Source of the DNA: Bacteroidota bacterium
Lineage (GTDB): Bacteria; Bacteroidota; Bacteroidia; UBA4408
DNA: 64,000 nt
NCBI GenBank assembly: GCA_963169745.1
Contig: CAUJCU010000015.1
Location: 146,005-210,004, forward strand
Direction of reading: 5' to 3'
Made by a program: the position numbers and the translations under genes. Positions 635 through 34,187 of this stretch are shown piece after piece (position 1 is the stretch's first letter; the number at the start of each line of letters is the position of its first letter). A model generated the notes under the pieces. The model made no database searches. It was not told the DNA's origin and worked only from the letters and a program-made list of their open reading frames with translations.

Positions 635-3600
635 ATGAAAAGAAAAACGCTGTGCTTAATATTTTCTACCGTGTTAGCTGTGTTTATTGTTAACTTTACT
701 CAAGCCCAGACTGATTTTGGTTCTGAAAAAGAACTTCGAAAACAAGCCGAAAACTATTTTAAAGATGATAAACACTCAGAAGCCTTACCTCTTTTTTCAC
801 AGTTATTGAGCTTATATCCCAAAGACCCCAATTATAATTATAAGTATGGGGTTTGCCTCTTATTTGCTAAAGCCGATAAAGAGAAGCCCTTGGCATACTT
901 AACTTTCGCTTTGGGGAAAGAAGGGGTTGATGATGATATTTATTATTATTTGGGAAAGGCGTACCACTTAAATTATCGATTTGATGATGCCATAGTACAA
1001 TATCAGCTATTCAAGCAAAAGAAAAGCAGAAGTTCAACTAAATTAGAAGTTGATTTGCAGATAAAACAGTGTGAAAATGGAAAGCTGTTACTTAAAAATA
1101 TTACTGATTTAACAGTAATTGACCGTAAAGAAATGAATAGTTCTGAATATTTCAGAGCTTATGATCTTACACAAATTGGGGCAAAACTAGTTGTAAAACC
1201 AGATGAACTTAAGACACCTTTTGACATCAAGAAAAAAGAACAATCTAATGTAGTTATTCGTCAAACCAGTCAGGAAATTTACTTTAGTAGTTATGGAAAT
1301 GACGGCAAGAATGGTCGTGATATATACAAGGTAACCAAGCTACCAAATTTCACATGGGGAAAGCCTGAAAATATTGGAGCAATAGTTAATACCCCGTATG
1401 ACGAGGATTTTCCTTATATCACACCAGATGGAAAGACCTTGTATTTTTGTAGCAAAGGGCATAATAGTATGGGGGGCTACGATGTGTTTCGTTCAGAATT
1501 ACAGCCATCAGGAGCATGGGGGAAGCCCCAAAATCTTGATTTTGCCATTAATACCCCCGATGATGACATTCAGTTTGTAACTGAGGCAGAGAGTGATTTT
1601 GCCTATTTCTCATCTAAAAGAAATAGTCCGGAAGGGAAAATTACCGTTTTCAAAATCAGAACGGTACGCGTTCCGGTAACGATTGCTGCCATAAGTGGTA
1701 AGTTTTATAATGATGACGATCCGAAAAGCAAAAAAGCAAAAATTTCAATTCGTAACATTCAAACAGGAAAATTTTTGGGAGTTTTTGCCAGTTCTGAAAA
1801 AGATGGTGCCTATAGGTTAAATTTAAACAATGGTACAAAGTACGAATATACGGTTGAGCAACCAGGATTACCGCCTCTTACACAAACAGTAGAAATACCG
1901 CCTTTAAAAGAGTTAAGACCTCTAAAACAAGAAATTCATTTGAAAAAGAATGATGGTTCTGCAAGTATGGTAATCTATAACTTTTTTAGCGATACTTTAG
2001 AAAATAACGCACTAGCTACGGCTGAATTGTTTAAAGAGAAAGCCAACTTGGAAGTAAATTATGAAGAGCAAATTCAAGCCGGAATAATTACAGAGGCTAT
2101 GACCAAGTCGCCTCCTGTGGTTGATAACAAAGTACTATCAAATAGAAATGCATATCAGGAAAGTACAGACTCAAGCAATGAGGTAAAAGATACAAGCAAC
2201 TCACTTGCTAATAACCATATAACTAATCAAGTAACTACCGATAAGAAAACCTCTATAACCAAGGAGCCCAACTCTGAAAACAAAAATAACAAGACATCAA
2301 AAACAGGAATAAATAACAATGAATTGTTAGCTATTGCCTTTGAAGATACTAAAGACACTCAAAAAGAAGCAGACGATTTAAGAGATAAAAGCAGACAAGC
2401 ATATTCCTTTGCTCATATAAAAAACAATGCGGCACTAAAAAAGCAAAAAGAAGCTGAAGATAAAGAAGAGTTAGCCGAAAACCGGACTAACCCAAAGGAA
2501 AGACAACAACAACTTGAGGAGGCCGATAATTTGAAAAAGGAGGCCGAACCTCTTCGCCAGCAAGCTGTTGTTGCTTACAATTTAGCAAAAAGTTTAGAGA
2601 GTGAAGCCGATAGTAAGCAAATAGAAGCCCGCCAGGCCGAACAGTATGCGCAAGACTTAGAAAAAGCCATTCAATCTAACTCAGCTGAGGCTATATTAAA
2701 CCTGGAGAAACAAAATAAGGAGCTTGAAAAAAATGACACAACTAAGAAAAATAGCGAATATGATAACTTAATGGCTTTGGCTGATCAAAAAAATAATGAA
2801 ACGCAACAAAAAGAACAGGAAAAAGAAAAAGTAAAATTGCAAATTGAAGAGTCGCTTCTTGAAGAAAAGAAAACAAGAGAGTTAGTCTTAAAAACAAATG
2901 ATGAAAAGGCGAAAGAACAGTACGATAGTCGTATTAGTGCTATTTTAGTAGAAAGAAAAGATAAAGAGACCACTTTGACTGCTATCGAAAATGAAATAAC
3001 CCGATTAAAAAGAGAAACCGAAAATATTACCGAAGAAGCACAAATTAATAAGCAAATATTAGCCGAAATTTCGAGTGGTAACAGTACAACATACACTCAA
3101 CTTGGGCAAGCAGAATTAAAAGCATTAGACAACCACTTGGGGGCAGAACAACAGCATAAACAAACCGGATCCCAGGTAACCCAAGTGTCACAAAAAAACA
3201 CGCCTAATAATTCAACTCCTAAAGAACCAATCACGGCTCCTTCGCTATCTAAATTAGAACAACCTGAAAACTACGAGATATATAAAAACTCTAAAGATGA
3301 AAACCAAAGAGAAAAACTTCTTGCCGAAGCGTTAATGTTCAACAACCGAGCTGACTCCATTTCCGATTTGCTGAAAACAACTTCAGAGGTGTCTGAAAAT
3401 GAGGCATTAACTATAAAGCAAAAACAATTTGAAAATATTGCAGCAAGCAAACAAGTAGCAGCCGGAATAATTTCTTACAATATATTACAGAAAGAATACG
3501 ATGCTAATAGAGATGCTTTATTGCGTAAACAAAAAGAATTACAAGAGTCAGATTTGGCCAACTTTAACAATAGCTTAAGCCAAATTGAAAATGATTATCA

Positions 3601-6600
3601 AAAAGCTGTTGATAGTAAAGAGGCAGCTCTTGCTATAACAAATACTAAAGAGCAACAAGAAGCCTTGAATGTTACTTTAAACACTCAAAATGTCGCTTTA
3701 GTGCGTCAAAGGCAATTACTGGAGCAAGCCAATAGCAGCATTATCCTAAATAAAGGTGAAACCAAAATAGCTCAAGACTTTAAAGGTTTTGAGAAAGATA
3801 GAAATATTAATGCAACTGAGGCGGTAAATAGCCTTAGACCCGATTATTTGAATTATAACTCAACGGTAAAGTTAAGCCCAGAAGAGGCTAACGAACTAAG
3901 AAAGAGTAAAGAATTTATAGAGTTTAGTACACTGATTAAACAAGCTAAAACGTATGAGGAAAATGCAGACAAAAAAGCTATTTCCTATAACACCATAAAA
4001 GAAGAAGGACAAAATAAAATTATTGAGTCTCAACAATTAATAGACTTGGCAGCAGAGGAGAAGAAGAAGGCCAAAAAACAAGCTATGGTAGAGGAAGCAG
4101 TAAGAATAGATAATGAAGGGCAAAATCAACTTGCAATGGCCGATACGGTTAAAATTCAGGCACAAAAAGAAATGCTGAAAGCTGTTGCAGTTAAGGAAGA
4201 AGCTGACAAATACATTGCTGCAATTGAAAAGGAGAGAGCAAATAAAATACTAGCATTATTTAATAATCAAATTGAAGAAAAGCAAGTAACAGAAACAAGA
4301 ACATCTTCTGTTGAAAGCAAGGAAAAAGAACCTCTTACTGTAGATATTACGAAAACATCACAACAAACAAGTTCTACAAATACAAATTCTACGCAACAAA
4401 CTATAGTAACTGCTCCAAAATCTCAGGAAACAACTCCTCCGGAAACAGCAAATCAACTTAAGAATAACAATAATAATAGTACACCTTCTGATATCCAGTC
4501 GGTTCAAATAAAAACTAAAGACCAAATATTGACTGAAATTAAGTCAGATAATGACTATAAAGCATATGCCCAAATAAAAGATGAATCTGAGACCCTTAAA
4601 AAGGCTTCACAGCGTAAAAAATTAGAGGCAGATTCTGCTAGAATACAGGCCGAAAGGGAAGCTATTAACAGCAACGACTTATTTGAATTTGCTGCTGCAC
4701 AACCAAAGAAAAAAGATAGAAAAGAGGCACAGTTAAAAGCAGAGCAATTAGACAAACAAGCTAAAGAAACGGCCTTTAGAGCAGACTCGCTTCAAAATGC
4801 AGCTACTGTTATGGAAAATCAGGCTCAGAGCAAGCAAAACGAAGCAGATGATTTTCTAAGAAAGTTTGATGAAATGAAGTCAAAGAAACTGCTTATGGCA
4901 TATAACAATACAGTCCCCGAAGAATTACTTAAAACGGAGACACCAATCATAGCTACAAAAGACATCAATCAAAATAAAGAAACTTTAATATCTCCAGATT
5001 TTCAAAAAAGCACCCAACAAAAGCAAGATACACTGTCAGTACCTACTAAACCGAAGCAGCCAAGTGTGAAAACTACTCCCGAGTACAACACTTATTTAAG
5101 CTTAAAACAAGAAACTGAAAAGGCCGATGAAACTGCTAAAAAATGGAAACAAACTGTAGATTCATTAAAAACACTAAGTGACGAAAAAGAAGATGCTTCA
5201 AATGCAAAATTAGAAGAAGTAGCAGGTCTTAATAAGAAAAAAAGAAAGCCTCTGGTAAAAGAAGCGGCTGATTTGGATTATCAATCTCAGGTTTTAAACA
5301 GACAAGCAGATTCTTTAAATACATTTGTTAACGAAGCAAACAAAATTGCCAAAGAGAAAAAAGCAGCAGAATCATCCTATATAAATGGCTTGGATAAGCA
5401 GTTGTCATTAAGAATAATGCGAGCTATAGAAGGTATTCCAGAACCTGAGGAGCGTATAGACACCAGCCGTATTCTGGCTCATACCCCACAAAATATTAGC
5501 ACATCATCTAAAGAGTCTTTTGTGGCACCAACAAAAACAAGTACTTCTAATGTATCTTTTACAACAAGAGGCATAACAGGGGCTCAGCCACATACTGCAC
5601 GAAACCCTATAAAAATGAATCCCCAAATGCCTGATGGTCTTGTATTTAAAGTTCAAATAGGTGCTTTCAATCGTCCGGTAGCTGATAACGCTTTTGGTAC
5701 CATAAGTCCGGTAACGGGCGAAACCATAGCCGGAAGTAACTTAATACGTTATACGGCTGGGTTATTTAATAATTTTAATGACGCTGCTGAAGCCCGTAAA
5801 GAGCTGAACCAATTAAATTATAAAGATGCCTTTGTTGTAGCCTACTGTTATGGAGTCAGAATCAGCGTTTCCGAAGCCCGAACCCTTGGAGCTGCTGGAA
5901 AAGATTGTAAAACCAATACACTACTAACACCAGATCAAAAAAGTGAATTGGCAGCACAGTTTAATACTTCTACATCTTCAAATTTGAATTCTGATCTATC
6001 TAAGGAGAGTCTAATTAGAGCATCACAGGCTAACATAAACCCTCCTTCGCAAATAAAAATAGGAGAACTATTACCTCAACAAGATTTAGAAACTATAAAA
6101 GGGTTACTTTATACCGTTCAAGTGGGCGTTTATAGCAAACCCGTAAAAGCCGGACAGCTATATAATATTACACCATTGTATTTTGAATTAAATCAAAAAG
6201 GACAATACCGATACACCAGTGGAATTTTTAATGAATTAAAAGAAGCTTTAAAAGCCAAAGATGTTATTGTGCAAATAGGTGTATCTGATGCCTTTGTTTC
6301 GGCTTATGTAAACGGAAAACGAATACCTATGGAAGAGGCAGCGGCTATGGAACTCCAGAAGGGGAAAACAGTTTTTGCTCAAGTTCCGGGTGTCAATGTG
6401 CAACCAAAAATAATTCCTATGGACAATACTGCTATTACATCGGAAATTACCATGCAAACGTCTCAAACAAAAGAGACCGAGATACTTAATAAAGCAGCAA
6501 ATATTGTTTATAAGGTGCAGTTGGGAGCTTTTAGAAAAGAAGTTTCTGTTGAGATTATGAACAAATTTTTAAGTATTGCCGATAAAGGAATAGCCAACTA

Positions 6601-6772
6601 TAAGAATGGAGATTTAACGATTTATACACTCGGTAATTTTAGTAGCATTACAGATGCTGAAAAATTAAGGGCTGAGGTTATTGCCTTAGGAATTACTGAC
6701 GCCTTTATTGTTGCCTTTAACAAAGGACAAAAAATAACAATTGAGGAAGCTAAGAGTATGGGTGGAAACTAA
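635..6772 (+). CDS. giant secreted envelope protein: signal peptide, TPR-like region, TolB/PD40-like beta-propeller, CarboxypepD_reg-like domain, ~1100-aa K/E/Q-rich coiled-coil spacer, 3 C-terminal SPOR domains
   Basis: Single 2045-aa ORF with an N-terminal signal peptide (MKRKTLCLIFSTVLAVFIVNFTQAQ). There are TPR-like YYYLGKAYHLNYRFDDAIVQYQLF motifs. PD40/TolB blades follow (IYFSSYGNDGKNGRDIYKV; PDGKTLYFCSKGHNSMGGYDVFRS; INTPDDDIQF). Then comes a very long low-complexity helical region. Three SPOR-type repeats follow (FKVQIGAFNRP..., YTVQVGVYSKP..., YKVQLGAFRKE...). The N-terminal ~430 aa are clearly paralogous to CDS 20454..22529. Confidence 0.85.
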   Translation: MKRKTLCLIFSTVLAVFIVNFTQAQTDFGSEKELRKQAENYFKDDKHSEALPLFSQLLSLYPKDPNYNYKYGVCLLFAKADKEKPLAYLTFALGKEGVDDDIYYYLGKAYHLNYRFDDAIVQYQLFKQKKSRSSTKLEVDLQIKQCENGKLLLKNITDLTVIDRKEMNSSEYFRAYDLTQIGAKLVVKPDELKTPFDIKKKEQSNVVIRQTSQEIYFSSYGNDGKNGRDIYKVTKLPNFTWGKPENIGAIVNTPYDEDFPYITPDGKTLYFCSKGHNSMGGYDVFRSELQPSGAWGKPQNLDFAINTPDDDIQFVTEAESDFAYFSSKRNSPEGKITVFKIRTVRVPVTIAAISGKFYNDDDPKSKKAKISIRNIQTGKFLGVFASSEKDGAYRLNLNNGTKYEYTVEQPGLPPLTQTVEIPPLKELRPLKQEIHLKKNDGSASMVIYNFFSDTLENNALATAELFKEKANLEVNYEEQIQAGIITEAMTKSPPVVDNKVLSNRNAYQESTDSSNEVKDTSNSLANNHITNQVTTDKKTSITKEPNSENKNNKTSKTGINNNELLAIAFEDTKDTQKEADDLRDKSRQAYSFAHIKNNAALKKQKEAEDKEELAENRTNPKERQQQLEEADNLKKEAEPLRQQAVVAYNLAKSLESEADSKQIEARQAEQYAQDLEKAIQSNSAEAILNLEKQNKELEKNDTTKKNSEYDNLMALADQKNNETQQKEQEKEKVKLQIEESLLEEKKTRELVLKTNDEKAKEQYDSRISAILVERKDKETTLTAIENEITRLKRETENITEEAQINKQILAEISSGNSTTYTQLGQAELKALDNHLGAEQQHKQTGSQVTQVSQKNTPNNSTPKEPITAPSLSKLEQPENYEIYKNSKDENQREKLLAEALMFNNRADSISDLLKTTSEVSENEALTIKQKQFENIAASKQVAAGIISYNILQKEYDANRDALLRKQKELQESDLANFNNSLSQIENDYQKAVDSKEAALAITNTKEQQEALNVTLNTQNVALVRQRQLLEQANSSIILNKGETKIAQDFKGFEKDRNINATEAVNSLRPDYLNYNSTVKLSPEEANELRKSKEFIEFSTLIKQAKTYEENADKKAISYNTIKEEGQNKIIESQQLIDLAAEEKKKAKKQAMVEEAVRIDNEGQNQLAMADTVKIQAQKEMLKAVAVKEEADKYIAAIEKERANKILALFNNQIEEKQVTETRTSSVESKEKEPLTVDITKTSQQTSSTNTNSTQQTIVTAPKSQETTPPETANQLKNNNNNSTPSDIQSVQIKTKDQILTEIKSDNDYKAYAQIKDESETLKKASQRKKLEADSARIQAEREAINSNDLFEFAAAQPKKKDRKEAQLKAEQLDKQAKETAFRADSLQNAATVMENQAQSKQNEADDFLRKFDEMKSKKLLMAYNNTVPEELLKTETPIIATKDINQNKETLISPDFQKSTQQKQDTLSVPTKPKQPSVKTTPEYNTYLSLKQETEKADETAKKWKQTVDSLKTLSDEKEDASNAKLEEVAGLNKKKRKPLVKEAADLDYQSQVLNRQADSLNTFVNEANKIAKEKKAAESSYINGLDKQLSLRIMRAIEGIPEPEERIDTSRILAHTPQNISTSSKESFVAPTKTSTSNVSFTTRGITGAQPHTARNPIKMNPQMPDGLVFKVQIGAFNRPVADNAFGTISPVTGETIAGSNLIRYTAGLFNNFNDAAEARKELNQLNYKDAFVVAYCYGVRISVSEARTLGAAGKDCKTNTLLTPDQKSELAAQFNTSTSSNLNSDLSKESLIRASQANINPPSQIKIGELLPQQDLETIKGLLYTVQVGVYSKPVKAGQLYNITPLYFELNQKGQYRYTSGIFNELKEALKAKDVIVQIGVSDAFVSAYVNGKRIPMEEAAAMELQKGKTVFAQVPGVNVQPKIIPMDNTAITSEITMQTSQTKETEILNKAANIVYKVQLGAFRKEVSVEIMNKFLSIADKGIANYKNGDLTIYTLGNFSSITDAEKLRAEVIALGITDAFIVAFNKGQKITIEEAKSMGGN
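5641..6760 (+). repeat. three tandem SPOR (sporulation-related repeat, septal peptidoglycan-binding) domain units inside the 635..6772 CDS
   Basis: Protein-level triplication of a ~80-aa unit beginning VQIGAF / VQVGVY / VQLGAF with the downstream YR/YT, GxF and DAF motifs typical of SPOR domains. DNA starts near 5641, 6110 and 6508. Confidence 0.6.
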
Positions 6773-6819
6773 CACTATCTTTGCAACAAAAAACATTAAA
6801 CCGGTAGCTGAAAATAAAT

Positions 6820-7674: not shown

Positions 7675-7693
7675 TCTATAGCGGTAAAATGGA

Positions 7694-9703: not shown

Positions 9704-9713
9704 AAATTAATTT

Positions 9714-11207: not shown

Positions 11208-13859
11208 ATGAACATTATTGATATAAAGGCCATGCGTGGCCCCAATTACTGGAGTATCAGACGACATAAGCTAATTGTTATGAAAATTGATTTGGAAGAA
11301 ATGGAAGAATTTCCTTCCAATAAAATCGATGGCTTTGCCGACCGGTTAGAAAAAATGTTCCCAAGTATGTATGAACACGAATGCAGTGAAAATAAGCCGG
11401 GAGGCTTTTTTTCTCGTGTACGGGAGGGCACCTGGATGGGGCATGTGATTGAACATATAGCTCTTGAAATTCAAACCTTAGCAGGAATGGATACCGGCTT
11501 TGGCCGAACCCGAACAACAGGCGAACATGGGGTGTATAATGTCGTTTTTAGCTATCAGGAAGAAAAAGTAGGAATATATGCTGCAAAGGCTGCTGTGCGT
11601 ATTTGTGAGGCCCTTGCAAAAGACACACCTTATGATTTAGGAGAGGATATTCAAAAAATGCGAGAAATACGTGAAGATGAAAGACTGGGGCCAAGTACAG
11701 GTTCAATTGTAGAGGAAGCTCAGGCACGTGGTATTCCATGGATACGTTTAAACCGTTATAGCCTGGTGCAGTTGGGATATGGCGTTAACCAAAAAAGAAT
11801 ACAAGCTACTGTAACGAGCAACACCAGTAATATTGCAGTTGAAATTGCTTGCGACAAAGAAGAAACTAAAAATTTGCTTGAAGCAGCTTCAATCCCAGTC
11901 CCACGTGGCACCATAATCTATGATGAAGAGGACATGGAACGTGCCGTAAGAAGAATAGGTTACCCTTTAGTGTTTAAACCGGTTAATGGAAATCATGGAA
12001 GAGGTGCTACCATAAATATTCAAAATTGGGATGCGGCTGTTGAAGCTTTGACTCTAGCAAAAAAAGTAAGCCGAGGCGTGATTTGTGAAAAGTTTATCAC
12101 CGGTTTTGACTTTCGTCTTTTAGTAATTAATTATCAGTTAATAGCTGCTGCCAAAAGAACTCCAGCTTGTGTAACAGGAAATGGCAAATCAACTATAAAG
12201 CAGCTTGTTGAGGAGGTAAATAATGACCCCCGCAGAGGTTATGGACACGAAAAAGTACTTACGGCTATTAAGCTAGATGAAATGACATTAAATATTTTGA
12301 AGGATAAAAATCTCAGTATTGATGATGTATTGCCTGATGGTGAAGTGCTTTACTTAAAAAAAACAGCAAACTTAAGTACTGGAGGAACCAGCACAGATGT
12401 TACTGATTTGGTGCACCCTGATAACGTTTTTATGGCCGAAAGAATTGCTCGCATTATTGGTCTTGATATTTGTGGTATTGATATTATGGCCTCCGATTTG
12501 AGTACTCCAATTAGTCAAAATGGTGGAGCTGTTCTGGAAGTGAATGCCGCCCCGGGTTTTAGAATGCATATTGCTCCTGCCGAGGGCTTGCCACGAAATG
12601 TAGCCGAACCAGTCATTGATATGCTATATCCGCCCGGCAGCTCAGCTCGTATTCCAATAATTGCCGTAACAGGAACCAATGGAAAAACAACTACAACCCG
12701 ACTTATGGCTCACATTGTGAAAACAATGGGGCATAAGGTTGGATTTACCACAACAGATGGTATTTATGTGCAAAATCGTATGTTGGAACAAGGAGATTGT
12801 ACGGGGCCGGTTAGTGCCGAGTTTATTTTAAAAGATCCAACGGTTGATTATGCCGTATTGGAATGTGCCCGTGGAGGAATTTTAAGAGCCGGCTTAGGCT
12901 TTCATAAATGCGACATAGCTATTGTAACAAACGTAGCAGCCGACCACTTAGGATTAAAAGATATTAATACTTTAGAAGACATGGCTCGTGTAAAGGGCGT
13001 TGTGCCTGAAAGTGTTATGCCCGAAGGTTATGCCATATTAAATGCAGACGATGATTTGGTGTATAATATGCGTAAAGGCTTAGAGTGTAATGTGGCCTTA
13101 TTCAGCTTAAACGAAAATAATCCACGTATAGTTGAACACTGTAATAAAGGCGGATTAGCAGCTATTGTTGAAAACGGCTATGTTACAATATGCAAAGGCA
13201 CCTGGCGCATTCGTGTGGATAAAGTTGTAAATATTCCACTCACGTTTAGCGGTAAAGCAATCTTTATGATTCAGAATGTTTTACCTGCCATACTTGCCGG
13301 GTTTATTAGAAATTTTAAGACAGAAGATATCAGATTGGCTTTGGGCACTTTTATTCCTTCGCCAACGCAAACTCCAGGACGTATGAACTTATTTCACTTT
13401 AAAAACTTTCAAGTTATGGTGGATTACGCCCATAATACAGCCGGATTCCAGGCCATTGGTAAGTTTTTAGAAAAAATTGAGGCGAAACCTAAAATTGGGA
13501 TTATTGCCGGTGTAGGCGATAGAAGAGATGAAGATATTTACAATTTGGGGAAACAAGCAGCCCAGATGTTTGATAAAATAATCATCAGACAAGATAAAAA
13601 TTTAAGAGGCCGAACAGAGCAGGAGATTATAGATTTAATGAAGAAAGGAATTAATGAAGTAGATGCATTACGATTAGAAAAAATAATTCCAACAGAAAAA
13701 GAAGCCATTGAGTATGCTATTAAAAATGCCCAAAAGGGTTCTTTTATTACAATTTGCAGCGATGTTGTACCTGACGCCTTAGATCAAATTATGAAATACA
13801 AAGAACGAGAAGATAAGTTTGAAATAACTGTTGAAGATATTCAGGACTTACATAAATAA
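11208..13859 (+). CDS. cphA: cyanophycin synthetase CphA1 (N domain + ATP-grasp + Mur-ligase-like domain)
   Basis: N-terminus MNIIDIKAMRGPNYWSIRRHKLIVMKIDLEE matches the conserved CphA N-domain start. An ATP-grasp region (GYPLVFKPVNGNHGRGATINI) follows. A Mur-ligase P-loop (IIAVTGTNGKTTTTRLMAHI) follows and the C-terminal region is Mur-ligase-like. The 883-aa length is typical of CphA1, not the shorter CphA2. Confidence 0.9.
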   Translation: MNIIDIKAMRGPNYWSIRRHKLIVMKIDLEEMEEFPSNKIDGFADRLEKMFPSMYEHECSENKPGGFFSRVREGTWMGHVIEHIALEIQTLAGMDTGFGRTRTTGEHGVYNVVFSYQEEKVGIYAAKAAVRICEALAKDTPYDLGEDIQKMREIREDERLGPSTGSIVEEAQARGIPWIRLNRYSLVQLGYGVNQKRIQATVTSNTSNIAVEIACDKEETKNLLEAASIPVPRGTIIYDEEDMERAVRRIGYPLVFKPVNGNHGRGATINIQNWDAAVEALTLAKKVSRGVICEKFITGFDFRLLVINYQLIAAAKRTPACVTGNGKSTIKQLVEEVNNDPRRGYGHEKVLTAIKLDEMTLNILKDKNLSIDDVLPDGEVLYLKKTANLSTGGTSTDVTDLVHPDNVFMAERIARIIGLDICGIDIMASDLSTPISQNGGAVLEVNAAPGFRMHIAPAEGLPRNVAEPVIDMLYPPGSSARIPIIAVTGTNGKTTTTRLMAHIVKTMGHKVGFTTTDGIYVQNRMLEQGDCTGPVSAEFILKDPTVDYAVLECARGGILRAGLGFHKCDIAIVTNVAADHLGLKDINTLEDMARVKGVVPESVMPEGYAILNADDDLVYNMRKGLECNVALFSLNENNPRIVEHCNKGGLAAIVENGYVTICKGTWRIRVDKVVNIPLTFSGKAIFMIQNVLPAILAGFIRNFKTEDIRLALGTFIPSPTQTPGRMNLFHFKNFQVMVDYAHNTAGFQAIGKFLEKIEAKPKIGIIAGVGDRRDEDIYNLGKQAAQMFDKIIIRQDKNLRGRTEQEIIDLMKKGINEVDALRLEKIIPTEKEAIEYAIKNAQKGSFITICSDVVPDALDQIMKYKEREDKFEITVEDIQDLHK

Positions 13860-18784: not shown

Positions 18785-19495
18785 TTAATTCTCTCGAATG
18801 GGCTGGTTTTTAAAAGGACCGAAATGATAAGTAAAGCCTAATCCAAATGTGATAAATTGATTGAATTTTTCAATATCATCTTTTACTACATTCTTGTTTA
18901 TTATGTTAAAATTATAGGTAAAGGGGTCGAAACTATATTGTTGATAATGATAGCTGATTTGAAGGCTAAAAGATAAATTTTCATCGGTAAAAAAACTCAA
19001 ATAGGTATTTAGTGCATATTCATTAAACTGCTGATTAAGGCTTGGTTTCTGTGTTACAGTATCGGGAAGCATACTTTTACTAAATCGGCCAAATGATTTA
19101 TGGTATGCAAACTCAAGGCCTATATTAAAAGGGCTTCCATCAAAATATTGATACCCTACAAAAATATTAGGCGACAGGATATGGTGCTTAACCTCTAGTG
19201 ACCCAATGTTAAAATTTCGACTATTTGCTGTTTTGTTTTGCTGGTAATAAAATCCTGATCCTGCAAATAATCCTTTCTTACTATAAAAAACAAAGGAAGG
19301 GTTGATGGCAATTACACCACTAAAGGTTTTCTTATAGGCTGCACTACCTTGCAGTGTTGGTATCGAAAAATTAGACTTAATACTATATTTATAAATAGGT
19401 ATTTGAGCCTGAATACACGGGGTAATGAACAACAATAACAGAAAAAAAGATACTCTTTTTTTGCTATTCTTTTCTGCTGTCATTATTAGGTACAC
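18785..19495 (-). CDS. small outer-membrane beta-barrel protein (porin-family/PorT-like), hypothetical
   Basis: Signal peptide (LLLLFITPCIQAQ). Alternating aromatic/hydrophilic beta-strand pattern. C-terminal aromatic-rich end, 236 aa. Confidence 0.5.
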   Translation of the reverse strand: MYLIMTAEKNSKKRVSFFLLLLFITPCIQAQIPIYKYSIKSNFSIPTLQGSAAYKKTFSGVIAINPSFVFYSKKGLFAGSGFYYQQNKTANSRNFNIGSLEVKHHILSPNIFVGYQYFDGSPFNIGLEFAYHKSFGRFSKSMLPDTVTQKPSLNQQFNEYALNTYLSFFTDENLSFSLQISYHYQQYSFDPFTYNFNIINKNVVKDDIEKFNQFITFGLGFTYHFGPFKNQPIREN

Positions 19496-20453: not shown

Positions 20454-22529
20454 CTAACGACTTAAAATTTTAAATTCGGTTCTCCGGTTTAACTGGCGCC
20501 CTTCATCGGTGTCATTTCCTGCAATAGGTTGTGTTAAGCCATAGCCCTTGTATTCTAATCGATCTTTTGATATTCCATTGCTTACCAAATATTCTACTAC
20601 TGATTTGGCTCTGCTTTCCGATAAGGTTTGATTATATTGGGCTGCTCCTTTGTTGTCGGTATGCCCACTAATTTCTATTTTTAGTGTAGGTACATCGTTA
20701 AGCAATTTGGTTAAACGCTCTAGTTCATTGTTTGACTCAGGCCTTAAAGTGGCTTTATCAAAATCAAAGAAAATATTACGCAATACAATTTTTTGACCCA
20801 CTTGTACATTTTTAAGTAGAACGTCTTTAACCACTTCCTGATAACCACTTGACGAAGGAATATCAAAGTTTTCGGAATGAAATAAATAACCCTCAGCTTT
20901 AACGGCAATCCCATAATTCTTTCCAGATGGCAGGGTAACCAAGTATTTACCTGTTTTATTATTTGATTTAAAGGTAGCTAGTTCCACGTTTTGAGTATTG
21001 TCCACCAATACAATTTCTGCACTAAGTGGTTTGTTTGAAATGGCATCTGTAATAACACCCTTTAAAAGAGTTACCGAATTCGATTCAATTTTTGCCGGAG
21101 GTGCAATAAAAACTTCACTTACAGGGGCTTCAATATTGGCAAAAAGATTGTCCTCATTACTTAACTGAACAGGTTTTTCGGGACCTAAAAAGGTTATCAT
21201 ATAGATGTCCTTATCACCTATGCCTTCATTCTTTATTGAGGCGTAATAACCATGCTTACCGCTTGCCGAAATAACAAAGAAAACATCATCATCCGGGGTA
21301 TTTATCGGATATCCTAAATTTACAGGTTCACTCCATACTCCATTTTTAAGTTCACACTTAAAAATATCAAATCCTCCCATACTGCTGTGTCCTTCTGAGC
21401 TGAAGTATAGAGTCTTACCATCGGGAACAATAAATACTCCCTCTTCATTATATTTTGTATTTATAGTAGTTCCAATGTTTACAGCCTCGCTCCATTTGTC
21501 TTTTTGATTTTTATCTACATACCAAATATCACGGCCACCTAAACTGCCATCCTTGCGGTCGCTTACAAAAAATAAGGTCTTTCCATCGTATGAGATAGAG
21601 GCCGATGATTCATGATCACTACTGTTTATTGATTTGGCCATTTTTTCGGGTTCAGTCCATTTGTCTCCTTTCAATATGCTCTCATAAATATTTCCATATC
21701 CCTTATCATCACGGTACGTATAGAGTGTTTGCCCATCGGGCGATAGGTTCACGGTTGCATCATGCCCAGGCGTATTAATAGGAGGGCCAATATTGGTAGG
21801 TACACCCCATTCTTCATTAAATTTATAGGTAACAAAAATATCCTCAAAGTATTCATCATAGTTTTCATCTATTTTACCACCGGTTGTTGTGTTTCTACGT
21901 GAGGTAAACATTAAAATATCTTCATCAGCAGAAATTACCGGTCCATAATCAGGATAAGTTGAGTTTACTTTATTCCCTAAATTATCAATAAAAACCCTTA
22001 CCGGAGTTTTTACCAGTATTTTCCCATGATTACATTCGGCTATTTTTTTGTTTACATCCTCAATTAAAAAAACTTGATCCTTTTTCTTTGGGTCTAATCC
22101 ATTACGAAACAATTGATACTCTTCAATAGCCTTATCCCACTCCATATTTAAATGATGGCCGCGTCCCAAATAATAGTGTATTTCAGCATCTACTTGAGGG
22201 TTTAGACTGTAGGCACGTTCAAAAAACTCTTTAGCTTTATATTTAAAGTTACCATTGATGTAACATACTCCAATTCTGAAATTTAGTTCCGAATTATTAG
22301 GGTTAAATGCTTGAGCCCTTAAATAGGGTTCTAACGCAAACTTATATTTTCCCGGGCGCTTGCCTAAAAACTCTTCATTCCCCATATCTAAAGCACTTTT
22401 GGCATCTCGAAGTTGATCTTTTTGTCCCGGAAAATTACTTTTTTCAAAAGGAATATCTTTTGCATTTTGAGCATTTGTTTGTATAGCGTAGTAGCTTACT
22501 AGTAACAGTATGAGGATAATTTTTTTCAT
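20454..22529 (-). CDS. TPR / TolB-like beta-propeller / CarboxypepD_reg-like / OmpA_C peptidoglycan-binding domain envelope protein (TolB-Pal-like fusion)
   Basis: Signal peptide. TPR-like N-terminus. PD40 blades (PDGKTLYFSSEGHSSMGGFDIFKCEL, INTPDDDVFFV). C-terminal OmpA_C (NIFFDFDKATLRPES…ISGHTDNKGAAQYNQTLSESRA…NRRTEF). Paralog of the N-terminal third of CDS 635..6772. Confidence 0.85.
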   Translation of the reverse strand: MKKIILILLLVSYYAIQTNAQNAKDIPFEKSNFPGQKDQLRDAKSALDMGNEEFLGKRPGKYKFALEPYLRAQAFNPNNSELNFRIGVCYINGNFKYKAKEFFERAYSLNPQVDAEIHYYLGRGHHLNMEWDKAIEEYQLFRNGLDPKKKDQVFLIEDVNKKIAECNHGKILVKTPVRVFIDNLGNKVNSTYPDYGPVISADEDILMFTSRRNTTTGGKIDENYDEYFEDIFVTYKFNEEWGVPTNIGPPINTPGHDATVNLSPDGQTLYTYRDDKGYGNIYESILKGDKWTEPEKMAKSINSSDHESSASISYDGKTLFFVSDRKDGSLGGRDIWYVDKNQKDKWSEAVNIGTTINTKYNEEGVFIVPDGKTLYFSSEGHSSMGGFDIFKCELKNGVWSEPVNLGYPINTPDDDVFFVISASGKHGYYASIKNEGIGDKDIYMITFLGPEKPVQLSNEDNLFANIEAPVSEVFIAPPAKIESNSVTLLKGVITDAISNKPLSAEIVLVDNTQNVELATFKSNNKTGKYLVTLPSGKNYGIAVKAEGYLFHSENFDIPSSSGYQEVVKDVLLKNVQVGQKIVLRNIFFDFDKATLRPESNNELERLTKLLNDVPTLKIEISGHTDNKGAAQYNQTLSESRAKSVVEYLVSNGISKDRLEYKGYGLTQPIAGNDTDEGRQLNRRTEFKILSR

Positions 22530-22552
22530 TGGTAACTTGTTTTTGTCCTTGA

Positions 22553-23632
22553 TTACTTACAGTCTTCAGTATATTTGCCGGCTAATTCGATACCCAGATT
22601 TTTAGCTTTTTCCCAATCTGTACAAGCCCCTTTAGGGTCGCGAAGCATTTCTTTTGCAATACCTCTGTTTAAATAAGCTACGGCATAATCGCTGTTTAAT
22701 TGTATAGCTTTTGTTGCATCATCTACCGAACCGTTGTAATCTTTTATCTTAAATTTAGCAGCCGATCGGTTGTTATATGCATAAGTGTAATCTCCTTTTA
22801 TTTTAATGGCATTTGAAAAGTCGTCAATAGCTCCTTTGTAATCACCTAAATCAAACCGGGCGCTGCCCCTGTTATTCAAAGCAATGTAACTGTCAGGTTT
22901 GGAGGCAATGGCTTTACTGTAACTTTCAATGGCACCTTTTAAATCGCCACTTTTTCGTTGGGCTGAGCCTAAGTTGTTATAAGTAAAAGTCATATCAGGG
23001 TTAAACTGTAATGCTTTTAAATAGTCACTAATAGCACCGTTATAATCTTCCATTTGCCTTTTGGTGCTACCTCGGTCATTGTAGGCATAAGCAAAATCGG
23101 GTTTTAAAACAATGGCTTGTGAAAAATCATCTATTGCCTCTTTGTATTTCTTTAAATTAAGGTAAACACTGCCTCTATGGTAATAAGCTTGGCTCTTGTT
23201 TTCGTTTCGCTCAATAGATTTTGTATAATAGGATATTGCTTTTTCATTTTCTTTTAATAATTCAAAAGTTTGTGCCATGTTGTACATAACATCCTGCAAG
23301 GAGTCGGTTAAAGATAGGCACTTCTCAAAATCTTGAATAGCTGCTCCATATTGTTTATTCTCTTTTTTAGCTACCCCCCGGTTAAAGTATGATTTTCCCC
23401 AATCGGGTTTTATGGCCAATGATTGAGTAAAAAAATCAATAGCCGCTTTATAATCACCAATTTTCATTTTTTCAATGCCCTCGTTATAGGCTTTTTCGGC
23501 CTCTTGAGAAGGAATTAAATTAATGATACTGTCTTTACTTTCAGATTGTGGAGTAGGGGAGTCGTTATTTTGTGCTTGCAATACTCCATATAAACAAGCA
23601 AGAAAAGCACAACAGCTTAGAATTTTTTTCAT
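22553..23632 (-). CDS. TPR-repeat lipoprotein/secreted protein
   Basis: At least 8 TPR-like repeats (AYYHRG…, AYNDRG…, TYNNLG…, ALNNRG…, AYNNRS…, AYLNRG…). Likely start at the internal MKKILSCCAFLAC signal/lipobox rather than the upstream MTIK. Directly upstream and co-directional with 20454..22529. Confidence 0.75.
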   Translation of the reverse strand: MKKILSCCAFLACLYGVLQAQNNDSPTPQSESKDSIINLIPSQEAEKAYNEGIEKMKIGDYKAAIDFFTQSLAIKPDWGKSYFNRGVAKKENKQYGAAIQDFEKCLSLTDSLQDVMYNMAQTFELLKENEKAISYYTKSIERNENKSQAYYHRGSVYLNLKKYKEAIDDFSQAIVLKPDFAYAYNDRGSTKRQMEDYNGAISDYLKALQFNPDMTFTYNNLGSAQRKSGDLKGAIESYSKAIASKPDSYIALNNRGSARFDLGDYKGAIDDFSNAIKIKGDYTYAYNNRSAAKFKIKDYNGSVDDATKAIQLNSDYAVAYLNRGIAKEMLRDPKGACTDWEKAKNLGIELAGKYTEDCK

Positions 23633-23865
23633 AAAAATGATAATTACTTTAATTGTCAAATTTAATTTCTTCTGTTAAATAATGAAAAAAAAATTAATAA
23701 TTGTTCATATTGTAGCAAGCTGCTTTATAAAGTGGGTAAAAAAGCTTTAAAATCCTACCCAACTTTAAAGCCCACTACTGTGTGAAGTATAAACTATAAT
23801 TACAGGTACACTTTTTGATTCTTTTAAAGTTAAATAGGATATTTGATAAGTATAAATCAATTTAA

Positions 23866-24742: not shown

Positions 24743-26105
24743 TCAATTAGTTATAATCCCCAATTCTTCATTAGTCAGTCCAAATTTAGTAATTTGTTTT
24801 TGTATTCTTTTTACTATTCCCAACTTTCTTTTCTGGTCTAAAAATAAATAACCTTCCGGGTTGATGTATTGCACATTTTTTACAACCATGTTCCATATAA
24901 TTACTCCAAATTTTCGGGCAGTAGCACTTATTGCAGAAACTCTACCTTTTCTAAAATTTATTCTTTGGAAAAAGTCTCTTAAAGGTGTTGAGTCTTTAAG
25001 ATTTCCTATGGCATTAGCAGCATTTCGAAATGCTATTTTCAGTCTGTTACTCCCTTTAGGCACTTTACTTGAAAGTACTTTGCCACCACTAACTTTGTTG
25101 TTTGGAGCAAGTCTGAGCCAGGAGCAAAAGTGTTTTGCAGTTGGAAACTTTTTTATTCCTTCTATACCTACTTCACTCATTATGGCAAGCACTGTAGCGT
25201 GACTCATGCCTTCTATTGCCAGCAAATCTGTACTTTCAAACATTTGATACGATTTTAGATTAAGATCTATGTCTTTGGGCGTATTTTTATTGATTCGCTT
25301 ATGCGGTTTTGAATCTATGTGGTGCTGTTTTTTATTTTCATCATTGTTAATGATTTCATCGAGCATTAATGCAATCATCTTGTCACATTCCATCATTTTA
25401 TTTTGGATGTGGTCATAAGTATCGAGTTCCTGCTGGAGTGTAAATAAATAATCTGTTCTTCCATTGCTTTGTAAAGCTTTGGCAATTTCCTCTTCACTCT
25501 TGCGACAGTTGGCATGTCGAAGTGCTGCAAGCTTTTGAGGATTTGCTTCTCCATCGCAGATAGCTCTGATAATGCGTAGTCCGGTAAGTCCACAAACATC
25601 ATTGACCACCACATCTAAGCGCAAATTTAAGAGTCTCAAATATTTCTGCATTTTTTTGCTTGTAGAAGCTGCATTGTGCAAGAGATTGGCTCTGTGTCGG
25701 CAAAAGGTTCTGAGTTGCTCTGTTTTTCCGTCTAGGAGGAAACTACTGCTCAAAAGTCCTAAGCTGTGCAACATTTGAATCCATTGGCAATCTTTAATAT
25801 CGGTCTTTTTGCCCTTGATGTTTTTGGTAAACTTTCCATTGCAAAGGATAACATGGAATCCCTTTGAGATTAAAACGGCATAAAGATTTTTGCCAGTAAG
25901 TACCGGTGCTTTCCATGGCTATGGTTCTAATCTTGTGCTCGTGAAGCCAATCGGCCATTTCATAAAGGTCTTGGTTAAATACGCCAAACGCTCTCACATC
26001 ATTTTCATGTTGCCCTACAGCTACCCAGTGGGAGCGACTACCAACATCAATTCCTGCGGCTAAAGGATTGACAATGTCCATTGGTATTTTTTCTTCTTCT
26101 ACCAT
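24743..26105 (-). pseudogene. IS110-family DEDD recombinase/transposase disrupted by a 1-nt frameshift in a homopolymer (two ORFs 25794..26105 and 24743..25774)
   Basis: The N-terminal ORF ends ...ESTGTYWQKSLCRF... The overlapping frame continues ...NLYAVLISKGFHVILCNGKFTKNIKGKKTDIKDCQWIQMLHSLGLL..., which is the conserved IS110 sequence. Removing one A from the A5 run (minus-strand caaaaatc; plus-strand T5 at 25887..25891) restores ESTGTYWQNLYAVLISKGF. Confidence 0.75.
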
Positions 26106-29136: not shown

Positions 29137-32100
29137 GTGAAAAACTTAGAACAAAAATCAAAAGATGAATTAATTGAATACATCAAATTGCTGCAAAGCA
29201 AGATTGATAATGTAAATCTATACTTCCCCGGCTTTGGTGTAATCAATAAGTATGAGAAAATCAATACACAAACTATTGATAAGTATCGACTTATGTTTCA
29301 AAAATCTAATGATGCCATTCTGGTTCTTAAAAAAAATATAGTTACCGAATGCAATTTTAAAAGCGAAAGTGTTTTTGGAATACACAAAGAGCATATTATT
29401 GGAAAATTTCTTTATGACTTTACACCCATGATTCAGCCTGATGGGTCAAATAGTAAAGAGAAAATTCACCAGTTTTTAAAAGAGAGTAACTCCAAGCACC
29501 AACAAATTCCATTACAAATTAAGATGTTGAAAAATGGGCTCAATTTGTTTGATGCAGAACTAAATTTTTCTGAATTTACAATTGATGAAGATACCTTTGT
29601 TTATCTCGTAATTAGAGATGTTTCAGAACGGATGGAGTTAAGCCGCCAGCTTAAAGATGAGTATGAAAAACGAATTGAAGAGCAAGATTTAACCCAAAGT
29701 GGAAATTGGGAATTTAATGCCAATAATTTTGATGTTTATTGGTCACCATCAGCCTATGCCATACATGACCTTTCACGCCATATAAAAGCACCCACATTAA
29801 ATGAATATTTTGCTCAATATGTGCACCCCGATGAGCATGATATTTTGTTTCAGGCAATTCAGGAAAGTATTAGAACGGGCCATAATTTTAGTATGGACTA
29901 CAAAATTAGGACCAAAAATCAAAAAATGAAATACCTGCATGTTAAGGGCAAAGCGGTATATCAGTTAAATGGTGAGGTTGATAAAGTTGTTGGTACAGTT
30001 GTAGATATTACAGAAAGAAAATTATTGGAAATTAAACTAAATGATAGTAAAGAGCAATATCAGAATTTGATTGAAAAATTGCCTGAAGGGGTAATTATCT
30101 ACAACCTCCAAAAAATACTGTATGCCAATATTAGTGCTTTTCAAATACCTAAGGTTAACTCTCTAAAAGAAGATTGTTCAGCATATTCAATTTTTGATTT
30201 TATTTTACCTCAATATAAAAATGAAGTTGAAAGAAAAATAAAGTTCCTAATTGAAGGCAAATCATTGGGAACTGTAGAAATGAGAATAAAAAATGCAGAG
30301 GGCAAAATTATAGATATTGAGGTTAGAAGTAACCCTGTGGTTCATAATGGAGAAGTGGCCATACAGGCTATTTTTTCAGAAATAACCTATAGAAAATATG
30401 TGGAACGGAAACTTCGTGAAAGTGAGCGCAGATTGAGTACCTTAATTGGTAATTTACAAGGAATGGTGTATAGGTGCAAAAATGATCCCTCTTGGACTAT
30501 GGAGTTTGTTAGCGATGGCTGTTTAGAGCTTACAGGTTATGATAGAGAAGCCATGTTAAATAATACATCTATACATTATAGCGAATTAATTCTTGATGAA
30601 GATAGGGAATCTGTTTGGCAAAAAGTACAAGAGGCGGTTTCAGAACGAAGAGTATTTACTCTTTCTTATCGTATTAGAACAAAAAATGGAACCATAAAAT
30701 GGCTCCACGAACAGGGTAAAGGTATTTTTGATGATCAAAATAAACTTTTGGCATTGGAGGGCTTTATTACCGATGTGTCAAGAGAAAAATATGCCGAAAT
30801 TGCCTTAAAGGAAAGATATAACGATTATAAGAATATTGTTGACTTTGTACCTGAAGGAATGCTTATACATAAGCACGGAACTATTGTTTTCGCAAATCAG
30901 GTAGCGCTCGGTATTTTTGGCTATAATACCAATGATGAGTTAAAAGGCCTTTCCATGATGAATTTTATTCTTCCGGAATTCCATGAAAAAGTTAAAAAGC
31001 GTGTTGAAGGCTCTTATAAAGGAATGCCTCAAACCTTTACTGAAATTAAGGTTTATACTCGAAATGGGGGGGTATTGGAAGTAGAAACTCGAAGTATTCC
31101 ATTTGTGTATGAAAACGAACAATGTGTTTTAGTTGCAGTTCACGCTATTGATGCTCAGAAACAGCTTGCAAAAGAAACTATAAGAGCAAAATTAGCTGAG
31201 GAAGCAAATGAAGCTTTAAAAAAGGAAATAGAGCAAAAAGTGATTGCTCAAAATGAATTAATTACTTCTCAGAACTATGTAAAGAATATCATTAATAGTT
31301 CGTTGGATATGATTATTGCCTCTGATAGGAACAATAAAGTAACGGAATTCAATAAAGCTGCGCAGATTGTTTATGGCTATAAAGAAAGTGAAATTATTGG
31401 ACAAGAGTTAAGTGTTTTAACATCTGCTCCTGAGGTGCTTTTGAAGGTTCAAGATGTACTGCATAAAGAAGGATACTTCTCAGGAGAGGTACTCAATATC
31501 AGAAAAAATGGGGAATTGTTCGATTGCTTCTTAACGGCTACTTTACTGCTCAACGAAAAAGGAGAGGTAATAGGAAGCATGGGGGTTTCGCGAGATTTAA
31601 CGAAACTAAAAAAAGATCGCGAACGCTTCCATCTAAGTGAAGAAAGATATAAAGCTATTTTCAACCAAGTTTTTGTTGGAATAGCTCGTTTAGACATATC
31701 CGGAAAGTTTACCCAGGTTAACCAAAGATTTTGTACTATATTAGGATATACAGAAGAAGAATTGTTAGAGCTTTATTTTCAAGATAAAAGCGTTGAGCAT
31801 ACTGTTAATGGCTTTGAGAATTTATTGGATTATTTAATTAGGAAAAAAATCAATGACTATACATTCGAGCAAAATTATTATCATAAAGATGGTCATATTG
31901 TAAATACCCAAATAAACATTTCATTAGTATTAAGTGCCAATAACAGCCCTATGTACTTTGTATTGGTTTGTGCTGATATTACTGAAAATAAGCGAAACCA
32001 TGAATTAGCCTTAAAACAAACGGCCAAGCTAAATTCATTAATTGAGAGCAGCAATTATATGGTAATGGCAATTGATAAAAAAGAAAGGCTAACAACATTT

Positions 32101-33417: not shown

Positions 33418-33428
33418 CAATATTCAAA

Positions 33429-34187
33429 ATGAGTAAAACAAATATCTTAATAGTTGAGGACGAAAGCATAGTTGCCAAAGATATTCAACACAGCCTGAAA
33501 AACCTTGGATATAATGTAGTTGGCATTGTGCCAACCGGTGAAGGTGCTGTTGCTACAGCCGTAGAAAAAACGCCAGACTTGGTGCTTATGGACATTATGT
33601 TGAAGGGCACAATGAGCGGCATAGATGCTGCCCAAGAGATAAAGGAAAAGCTTAATATCCCGGTTATATTTTTAACTGCTTATGCCGATCAAATTACTTT
33701 TAATAAAGCTAAAATTACCGAGCCTTATGGGTATCTTATTAAGCCATTTAAAGAAATTGATTTGCATACTTCAATCGAGATGGCTATTTATAAACATGAG
33801 AAAGTTAGTGATGTAGAGAAAGAAAGGGATTTTTTATATTCTCTTGTTGAAAATAAAGAATCGTCTGTAAAAGATAGTATATTTATTAGAGCCAATAGCA
33901 GATTAACAAAAGTAAAAAATAAGGATATTGTTTTTATTGAAGCCCTAAAGGATTACGTAACAGTAAATGCTATTAATACACGCTATACCATTCATAGCAC
34001 AATGAAAGATATATTAGTGAAACTTCCACCTACCGAGTTTATCAGAATTCATCGCTCTTTTATTGTACGTATTGACCGTATTGCAGCTATCGAATACCCA
34101 AATCTAATTTTAGATATAGATAAAAAGGTATTGCCTATAGGTGGCTCATACAGAAACGATTTGCTGAATAAAATTAACTTGATCTAA
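33429..34187 (+). CDS. two-component response regulator, receiver + LytTR DNA-binding domain
   Basis: Receiver motifs (ILIVEDE, DLVLMDIML, phospho-Asp in LMD, FLTA). C-terminal LytTR (FIRIHRSFIV…). 11 bp downstream of the kinase. Confidence 0.85.
   Translation: MSKTNILIVEDESIVAKDIQHSLKNLGYNVVGIVPTGEGAVATAVEKTPDLVLMDIMLKGTMSGIDAAQEIKEKLNIPVIFLTAYADQITFNKAKITEPYGYLIKPFKEIDLHTSIEMAIYKHEKVSDVEKERDFLYSLVENKESSVKDSIFIRANSRLTKVKNKDIVFIEALKDYVTVNAINTRYTIHSTMKDILVKLPPTEFIRIHRSFIVRIDRIAAIEYPNLILDIDKKVLPIGGSYRNDLLNKINLI

Follow-up and report, generated by a model that had tools for sequence, protein, structure and literature searches.

A conserved TPR and OmpA-family gene pair of Bacteroidota related to PorE and CHU_0125, and its SPOR-ended giant relative

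The subject of this study is a pair of genes located in a 64,000-nucleotide (nt) stretch of DNA from a Bacteroidota bacterium (GenBank assembly GCA_963169745.1, contig CAUJCU010000015.1, positions 146,005 to 210,004 of the forward strand), which is referred to here as the window. The region examined was the minus strand from position 20454 to 23632, where two tandem open reading frames (ORFs) encode a 359-amino-acid (aa) protein made of tetratricopeptide repeats (TPR) and a 691-aa protein ending in an OmpA_C peptidoglycan-binding domain. The data showed that the TPR gene and the 691-aa gene are a self-contained, vertically inherited two-gene unit, which is very widespread in Bacteroidota. As judged from its sequence, the 691-aa protein is a member of the PorE/CHU_0125 superfamily, in which it forms, together with its orthologs, a separate orthogroup of uncharacterised function, apart from both PorE and CHU_0125. 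By analogy, the pair would serve as a peptidoglycan-anchored periplasmic scaffold for general envelope tethering, a reading to which we give a probability of about 0.55. The two genes and the DNA between them are as follows:

22553..23632, minus strand: TPR-repeat partner gene, 359 aa; an ORF matching TPR_1, with a signal peptide (cleavage site between VLQA and QNN), about eight TPR motifs, and cysteines C337 and C358
22530..22552, minus strand: 23-nt spacer separating the two genes, in which a terminator-like hairpin was looked for and none was found
20454..22529, minus strand: PorE/CHU_0125-superfamily gene, 691 aa; signal peptide, TPR, five-bladed PD40 propeller, CarboxypepD_reg-like domain (CRD) and OmpA_C

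The initial annotation of this DNA had placed a TPR gene directly upstream of the OmpA-family gene, and the two are indeed on the same strand, 23 nt apart. The conservation of this arrangement was analyzed in an ortholog scan using one genome per species, which returned 80 loci with orthologs 52-81% identical, originating from Hymenobacter, Chitinophagales, Rikenellaceae, Prevotellaceae, Flavobacteriales, and unclassified Bacteroidia. Upstream DNA was sufficient for this comparison in 73 loci, and in 71 of them a TPR ortholog, 34-66% identical, immediately preceded the OmpA-family gene on the same strand. The spacer between the two genes ranged in these loci from -41 to 578 nt, with a median of about 40 nt. 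In one of the exceptional loci (L042) an unrelated 408-aa gene was located upstream of the ortholog, while in the other (L044, positions 2364-10079, from one metagenome-assembled genome) two genes were inserted between the TPR partner and the ortholog, which is a local expansion of the operon. The inserted genes encode an 871-aa PorE-like protein, which has two CRD-type matches and a C-terminal EF-hand, followed by a 662-aa TPR-SpoIIE phosphatase. When the ORFs were clustered across the loci, only two genes were conserved (in 82 and 70 loci), the next cluster being present in 15 of 82, and no conserved neighbor of the porP/sprF-like, tol, or type IX secretion system (T9SS) cargo kinds was seen in the 80 loci. 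The divergence of the TPR proteins and that of the OmpA-family proteins were correlated across loci (r=0.79). The layout of the sequence suggests that co-transcription of 22553-23632 with 20454-22529 is likely.

The domain content of the 691-aa protein was defined by comparison with Pfam and by an AlphaFold2 (AF2) model built on 38 orthologs, with a mean predicted local distance difference test (pLDDT) score of 82 and a predicted template modeling (pTM) score of 0.72. The earlier assignment of an OmpA_C domain to the end of this ORF was borne out, as the C-terminal region matched PF00691 with an E-value of 1e-24 (residues 587-682), and PD40 matched with 2.3e-24. The Pfam matches to TPR and CarboxypepD_reg were below the gathering scores; the AF2 model backs both domains. 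The parts of the protein are the following:

residues 1-20, minus strand: signal peptide, which ends in TNA followed by QN and has no Cys
residues 37-172 (22014..22421), minus strand: TPR-like helical domain; AF2, pLDDT mostly >90, with sub-threshold TPR_1/TPR_2 matches
residues 179-447 (21189..21995), minus strand: five-bladed PD40 beta-propeller; PD40 match and AF2 strand pattern
residues 453-481, minus strand: low-confidence linker in the AF2 model
residues 486-572 (20814..21074), minus strand: CarboxypepD_reg-like beta-sandwich (CRD); CarboxypepD_reg 4e-4 and AF2
residues 580-690 (20460..20792), minus strand: OmpA_C peptidoglycan-binding domain; PF00691, with D625, N633, and R640

When the model was compared with the PDB using Foldseek, the propellers of TolB ranked first (E about 2e-10, 15-16% identity), and they were followed by OmpA_C domains, including those of OprF and PorE's C-terminal domain (6TOP). 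The latter was also the best sequence match of the OmpA domain among solved structures (8e-26). In this structure the residues of PorE that hold the stem peptide are Asp576, Asn584, and Arg591 (PMC7192894). Residues D625, N633, and R640 of the 691-aa protein align with PorE D576, N584, and R591 at the same spacing, and none of them varies among the 38 orthologs. By this alignment, the OmpA_C domain of the 691-aa protein retains the triad that holds the diaminopimelate of the stem peptide in PorE.

To place the protein among known families it was scored against NCBIfam models. The best model was CHU_0125_OmpA (NF053607), to which the protein aligned end to end (residues 58-690 on model positions 31-638) with 340 bits versus a cut-off of 620, while the second was T9SS_PorE (NF052230), with 303 bits versus a cut-off of 600. 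An identity as CHU_0125 was rejected on this score, and an identity as PorE on the score and the lack of a lipobox. Ten orthologs, which were from Hymenobacter, Rikenellaceae, Prevotellaceae, Chitinophagales, Flavobacteriia, and unclassified Bacteroidia, were scored in the same way. Those from Hymenobacter, which belongs to the order of Cytophaga, reached 321-334 bits on the CHU_0125 model, and those from Prevotellaceae and Rikenellaceae, which belong to the order of Porphyromonas gingivalis, reached only 319-322 bits on the PorE model. Because even orthologs from the same orders as Cytophaga hutchinsonii and P. gingivalis fall below the cut-offs, the shortfall is not explained by mere phylogenetic distance and points to a different orthogroup. 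Among the 60 nearest representatives of clusters at 50% identity (39-56% identical), none matched the PorE or the CHU_0125 model at E<=1e-150. The superfamily as a whole is very large: it comprised 11,803 representatives at E<=1e-30, a word-indexed search scored over 7,900 homologs, and where sources name its members the labels are generic, for example, "OmpA family protein" or "PD40 domain-containing protein." The top-scoring cluster representatives (P0241-P0243) are multi-propeller giants of the superfamily, with lengths of 1,800-2,100 aa and 7-8 matched stretches.

The initial annotation had described the TPR protein as a lipoprotein, which was not supported by the ortholog alignment. The signal peptide of this protein contains cysteines at positions 7, 8, and 13, and no more than 1, 8, and 2 of the 72 orthologs, respectively, share them. 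An [ASG]-Gln site, located where the hydrophobic stretch ends, was seen in 71 of the 72. The same site was found in 76 of 77 OmpA-family orthologs, and a lipobox-like motif in two of 72 TPR orthologs and two of 77 OmpA-family orthologs. A Gln residue directly after the cleavage site marks signal peptidase I substrates under the "Q-rule" of Bacteroidetes (PMC5837995, PMC10653852). Since each of the two products has a Sec signal peptide and an Ala-Gln site for signal peptidase I, they are most likely soluble periplasmic proteins and not lipoproteins. The two C-terminal cysteines of the TPR partner, C337 and C358, are conserved in 71 of 72 orthologs, and they probably form a periplasmic disulfide. 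Along its length the partner matched only TPR families in Pfam (TPR_1 1.6e-56, seven stretches), and its identity as CpoB/YbgF (TIGR02795) was rejected, as it scored 40.3 bits versus a cut-off of 90.1 and has no coiled-coil trimerization domain.

The window also encodes a relative of the 691-aa protein, which had been noted in the initial annotation as a giant protein sharing its TPR, PD40, and CarboxypepD_reg modules:

635..6772, plus strand: 2045-aa paralog; TPR, three PD40 blades, and CRD in residues 1-450, spacer in residues 461-1650, and SPOR-like repeats

This sharing was confirmed. In BLASTP the two proteins aligned with an E-value of 6e-34 and 31% identity over 285 columns, as well as with 2e-20 over the TPR part, and hhalign of the two family alignments gave a probability of 100% and E=2.4e-74 over 415 aligned columns. 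Hence, the homology of the N-terminal modules is correct and far beyond chance. The peptides that had been quoted in its favor are real, with YYYLGKAYHLNYRFDDAIVQYQLF and PDGKTLYFCSKGHNSMGGYDVF (YYYLGKAY... and ...FCSKGHNSMGGYDVF) present in the giant and HYYLGRGHHLNMEWDKAIEEYQLF and PDGKTLYFSSEGHSSMGGFDIF in the 691-aa protein. No third paralog was found in the window. Pfam matched TPR, PD40, CarboxypepD_reg, and a C-terminal SPOR domain in the giant; the SPOR family (PF05036, gathering score 21 bits) scored 35.8 bits with the whole protein and 51.2 bits, in two stretches, with its C-terminal 456 aa, while reading of the sequence located three repeat starts of the VxKVQxGAF type, at residues 1670, 1825, and 1958.

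The claim that the two paralogs differ only in the peptidoglycan-binding end proved incorrect, because the giant lacks two blades and has an additional spacer. An AF2 model of its residues 1-460 (pLDDT 88) and the profile alignment agree that the TPR and CRD are present and that there are only three PD40 blades; in place of the two blades in residues ~175-290 of the 691-aa protein the giant has a short segment. The three-blade propeller alone is open and incomplete, and it might be closed through oligomerization via the long charged spacer, which comprises about 1,200 residues (461-1650) and is rich in K, E, A, Q, and N. The orthologs of the N-terminal module are 34-57% identical, and mostly end at contig ends. 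Among 80 metagenomic loci, all 46 complete ORFs, which are 1,780-3,363 aa long with a median of 2,147, end with in-frame homology to the SPOR region, and the giant is a conserved family of its own (loci L086-L167). The plsY gene is located immediately upstream of the giant gene in 33 of 74 loci, likewise in the window, L086, and L087, while the TPR-OmpA pair never has plsY as a neighbor. The pair was not found within 10 kb of the giant in any of these 80 loci. The named relatives of the giant are of the Flavobacteriales type (Crocinitomicaceae, Vicingaceae, Salibacteraceae, Fluviicola) or are unclassified Bacteroidia; the pair, for its part, occurs in several orders. These comparisons of sequence indicate that the OmpA-family protein of the pair and the giant are separate, old lineages, each with its own orthologs, and that their duplication is old. 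A literature search for SPOR proteins of Bacteroidota gave nothing relevant. Shortly downstream of the giant gene (7694-10802, plus strand), the window encodes a multihaem cytochrome c of 669 aa, which has a TPR region at its C terminus, and, directly after it, an MltG/YceG endolytic transglycosylase.

The architecture of the 691-aa protein has several precedents. PorE of P. gingivalis (PG1058/PGN_1296) consists of TPR (25-149), a five-bladed propeller (167-435), CRD (441-527), and OmpA_C (534-668) (PMC7192894), which is the same order of four domains with close boundaries and the same Asp/Asn/Arg triad. The differences are that PorE is an outer-membrane lipoprotein, while the 691-aa protein has a signal peptidase I site, and that the latter has a conserved TPR partner gene, which is not reported for porE in the cited literature. 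PorE depends on its peptidoglycan-binding motif, and the WD40 domain probably takes part in PorP binding (PMC12773672). Gliding Bacteroidota encode numerous PorE homologs, of which most, if not all, are non-lipoproteins (PMC7192894, PMC12773672), and in Flavobacterium johnsoniae five or six of these share operons with a type B cargo and a barrel similar to SprF/PorP (PMC9143113, PMC12618676). The "Pal-like" protein CHU_0125 of C. hutchinsonii resembles the 691-aa protein in its TPR, PD40, and OmpA_C content and in the end-to-end match of its model, while the score described above places it in a different orthogroup. Its deletion, made with a construct in which three flanking genes occupy 2.4 kb, resulted in outer-membrane defects and leakiness, and about sixfold more vesicles (PMC5891637), a phenotype established in C. 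hutchinsonii only.

In 2025 PorE was proposed to be a fused CpoB-TolB-carboxypeptidase-Pal, an "extremely compact Tol-Pal system," maybe trafficking to the septum (PMC12204202, section 10). The 691-aa protein is similar to the Tol-Pal proteins (CpoB/YbgF, TolB, Pal) in having TPR, a propeller that matches TolB, and OmpA_C, in the N-to-C order of the fusion described for PorE (PMC12204202), and its separate TPR partner recalls CpoB. It differs from them in the lack of TolB_N, a lipobox, and linked tolQRA genes, and in having five blades versus six. An identity as TolB was rejected, with no match to PF04052 (TolB_N) at E<=0.01, too few blades, and no tolQRA-tolB-pal context, and so was an identity as Pal (TIGR02802), to which the C-terminal domain alone aligned with 86 bits versus a cut-off of 125, and which accounts neither for the missing lipobox nor for the three extra domains. 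Hence, of the earlier description of the locus as a Pal/TolB-like module, the likeness of folds (a TolB propeller and a Pal-type OmpA_C) and the conserved coupling to a TPR protein stand, while membership in the TolB or Pal families does not. A further likeness is to the flagellar T-ring of Vibrio, in which MotX, a secreted, disulfide-containing protein similar to Sel1/TPR, and MotY, a non-lipidated OmpA_C protein, anchor the machine to the wall. This two-protein logic resembles that of the TPR and OmpA_C pair; in sequence, nothing but the OmpA_C and TPR-like folds is shared, and MotY has neither a propeller nor a CRD.

The proposed scaffold would work as follows. The OmpA_C domain would bind the peptidoglycan stem peptide non-covalently, and the CRD with the flexible linker would act as a spacer between OmpA_C and the propeller and TPR domains. 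The latter two, as protein-binding platforms, may bind other envelope proteins together with the 359-aa TPR partner, which is itself most likely a direct binding partner of the 691-aa protein. In this way the scaffold could fix an outer-membrane component to the wall, and so contribute to outer-membrane tethering and integrity. Because neither protein is lipidated, the link to the outer membrane would have to be made through a third, outer-membrane partner. General tethering or scaffolding is the favored function because of the high conservation of the pair across orders, the end-to-end match to CHU_0125, and the lack of T9SS linkage. Several observations weigh against it. Not only is the 691-aa protein below the curated cut-offs of both characterized families, CHU_0125 and PorE, but the ten scored orthologs also fail them, with 308-363 bits for CHU_0125 and 269-325 bits for PorE, and because both cut-offs are missed the transfer of function to this orthogroup would be by architecture alone. 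With no lipid anchor on either protein a direct tether of the Pal type is impossible, and no outer-membrane partner gene was linked to the pair in the 80 loci. The presumed physical interaction of the TPR protein with the 691-aa protein is read from gene order, and the co-transcription of their genes is likewise presumed.

Other explanations of these data differ in the partner of the propeller, the role of the giant, and the meaning of the gene adjacency. If the 691-aa protein were a functional PorE of the T9SS, its propeller would bind a PorP/SprF-type barrel, while OmpA_C would fix the secretion or attachment complex to the wall. This would fit the shared four-domain architecture with five blades and the peptidoglycan-binding triad, the T9SS-related genes that contigs of relatives carry close by or farther away (T9SS_plug in L004 and a Por_Secre_tail protein in L087), and the fact that the PorE homologs of F. 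johnsoniae are also non-lipoproteins (PMC7192894). On the other hand, the protein reaches 303 of the 600 bits of the PorE cut-off, its Prevotellaceae and Rikenellaceae orthologs 319-322, and none of the 60 representatives reaches E<=1e-150; it has no lipobox, and no T9SS gene was detected among the window ORFs scanned. Its conserved partner is a TPR protein instead, and no porP/sprF-like or type B cargo gene is a conserved adjacent gene in the 80 loci, in contrast to the porE-like operons of F. johnsoniae (PMC12618676). Gene order is indecisive with regard to PorP binding. The reason is that porE of P. gingivalis is itself unlinked to porP. Taken together, a role as PorE is the strongest of the rival readings, and we consider it unlikely.

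It was also suggested in the initial annotation that the 691-aa protein and the giant are versions of one tethering function, directed to general and to septal peptidoglycan, respectively. In favor of this are the homology of the N-terminal modules and the SPOR repeats at the end of the giant, whose architecture is conserved in all 46 complete ORFs; SPOR domains are known to bind denuded septal glycan. Septal trafficking has also been speculated for PorE (PMC12204202). However, the two proteins differ in the number of blades (three versus five), the presence of the ~1,200-residue spacer, and the operon partner; they are only about 31% identical, have each their own orthologs and a different distribution (Flavobacteriales-type or unclassified Bacteroidia for the giant versus several orders for the pair), and do not occur within 10 kb of each other in the 80 metagenomic loci. 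We regard such a partition, and the localization that it presumes, as quite doubtful. Finally, TPR proteins are very common in Bacteroidota and the interaction is deduced from gene order, and hence the adjacency of the two genes could be meaningless and the proteins could act independently. This is very improbable given that in 71 of 73 loci, which represent several orders, the genes are adjacent on the same strand (median gap, about 40 nt), and given the lack of any other conserved neighbor and the correlated divergence.

The start of the TPR gene could be assigned either to TTG at 23659 (368 aa) or to ATG at 23632 (359 aa). The latter was chosen and the TTG rejected because gene callers use the ATG on identical public contigs, because the orthologs open with the same MKK-type signal peptide, and because the TTG overlaps a promoter-like motif:

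23657..23664, minus strand: TAAATTTG, promoter-like, matching the Bacteroidetes -7 consensus; a weak, putative assignment

The consensus is TAnnTTTG, known from Bacteroides promoters. The motif lies 24 nt upstream of the ATG, and it is short and AT-rich. A scan with a sigma-70 model, which is unsuited to Bacteroidota promoters, gave fewer sites (11) than in shuffled sequences (20.1). The gene for enoyl-ACP reductase (fabI) is located 127 nt downstream of the 691-aa gene, while 233 nt upstream of the TPR gene there is a His_Phos_1 gene in the opposite direction, and beyond it an IS110-family transposase (24743-26105, minus strand), which is split into DEDD_Tnp_IS110 (103 aa) and Transposase_20 (343 aa) parts and is probably a disrupted copy. 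The exact sequence of the 691-aa protein is present on 12 public contigs, and the fact that public contigs with this gene end inside the element suggests that it is repeated in the genome. An exact-sequence look-up of the TPR protein and of the 2045-aa giant in the protein collection gave no match. Two genes downstream of the 691-aa gene (18785-19495, minus strand) lies the gene for a protein of 236 aa that has a signal peptide but matched nothing in Pfam, and that is suspected, from reading of its sequence, to be a small outer-membrane beta-barrel; because this gene was found only on contigs identical to the window, it is outside of the conserved unit. Elsewhere the window encodes an 883-aa cyanophycin synthetase-type protein (11208-13859, plus strand; Cyanophycin_syn N-domain, ATP-grasp, Mur ligase M and C domains), and a histidine kinase of 1,426 aa, which has numerous PAS domains and an HisKA_2/HWE-type core and is followed by a LytTR response regulator (29137-34187, plus strand).

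Tol-Pal loci have been reported as not identifiable in Bacteroidetes (PMC12204202), which leaves the question of how these bacteria hold the outer membrane to the wall and draw it in at division without a recognizable Tol-Pal system. PorE has been proposed as an answer, yet it is a lipoprotein tied to type IX secretion. The data presented here add a more widely conserved, non-lipidated orthogroup of the PorE/CHU_0125 superfamily with a fixed TPR partner, as well as evidence that its giant relative, which ends in SPOR repeats and has a three-blade propeller, constitutes a conserved family. As the Tol-Pal-like reading has already been published for PorE and the superfamily has already been recognized, the finding is moderately new; no description of the split into orthogroups, the non-lipidation, the fixed TPR partner, or the SPOR-ended giant family was found in the cited PorE and CHU_0125 literature. 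A broader view, which we consider speculative and rather improbable, is that the pair would be the housekeeping substitute of the phylum for the periplasmic part of Tol-Pal, and the giant its division-site counterpart, coupling an outer-membrane partner of the same kind to the septal peptidoglycan as the cell constricts. Taken by itself, the finding gives the correct domain annotation of a common "OmpA family protein," and it provides, in the pair and the giant, concrete candidates for gene deletion and localization work in tractable Bacteroidota.

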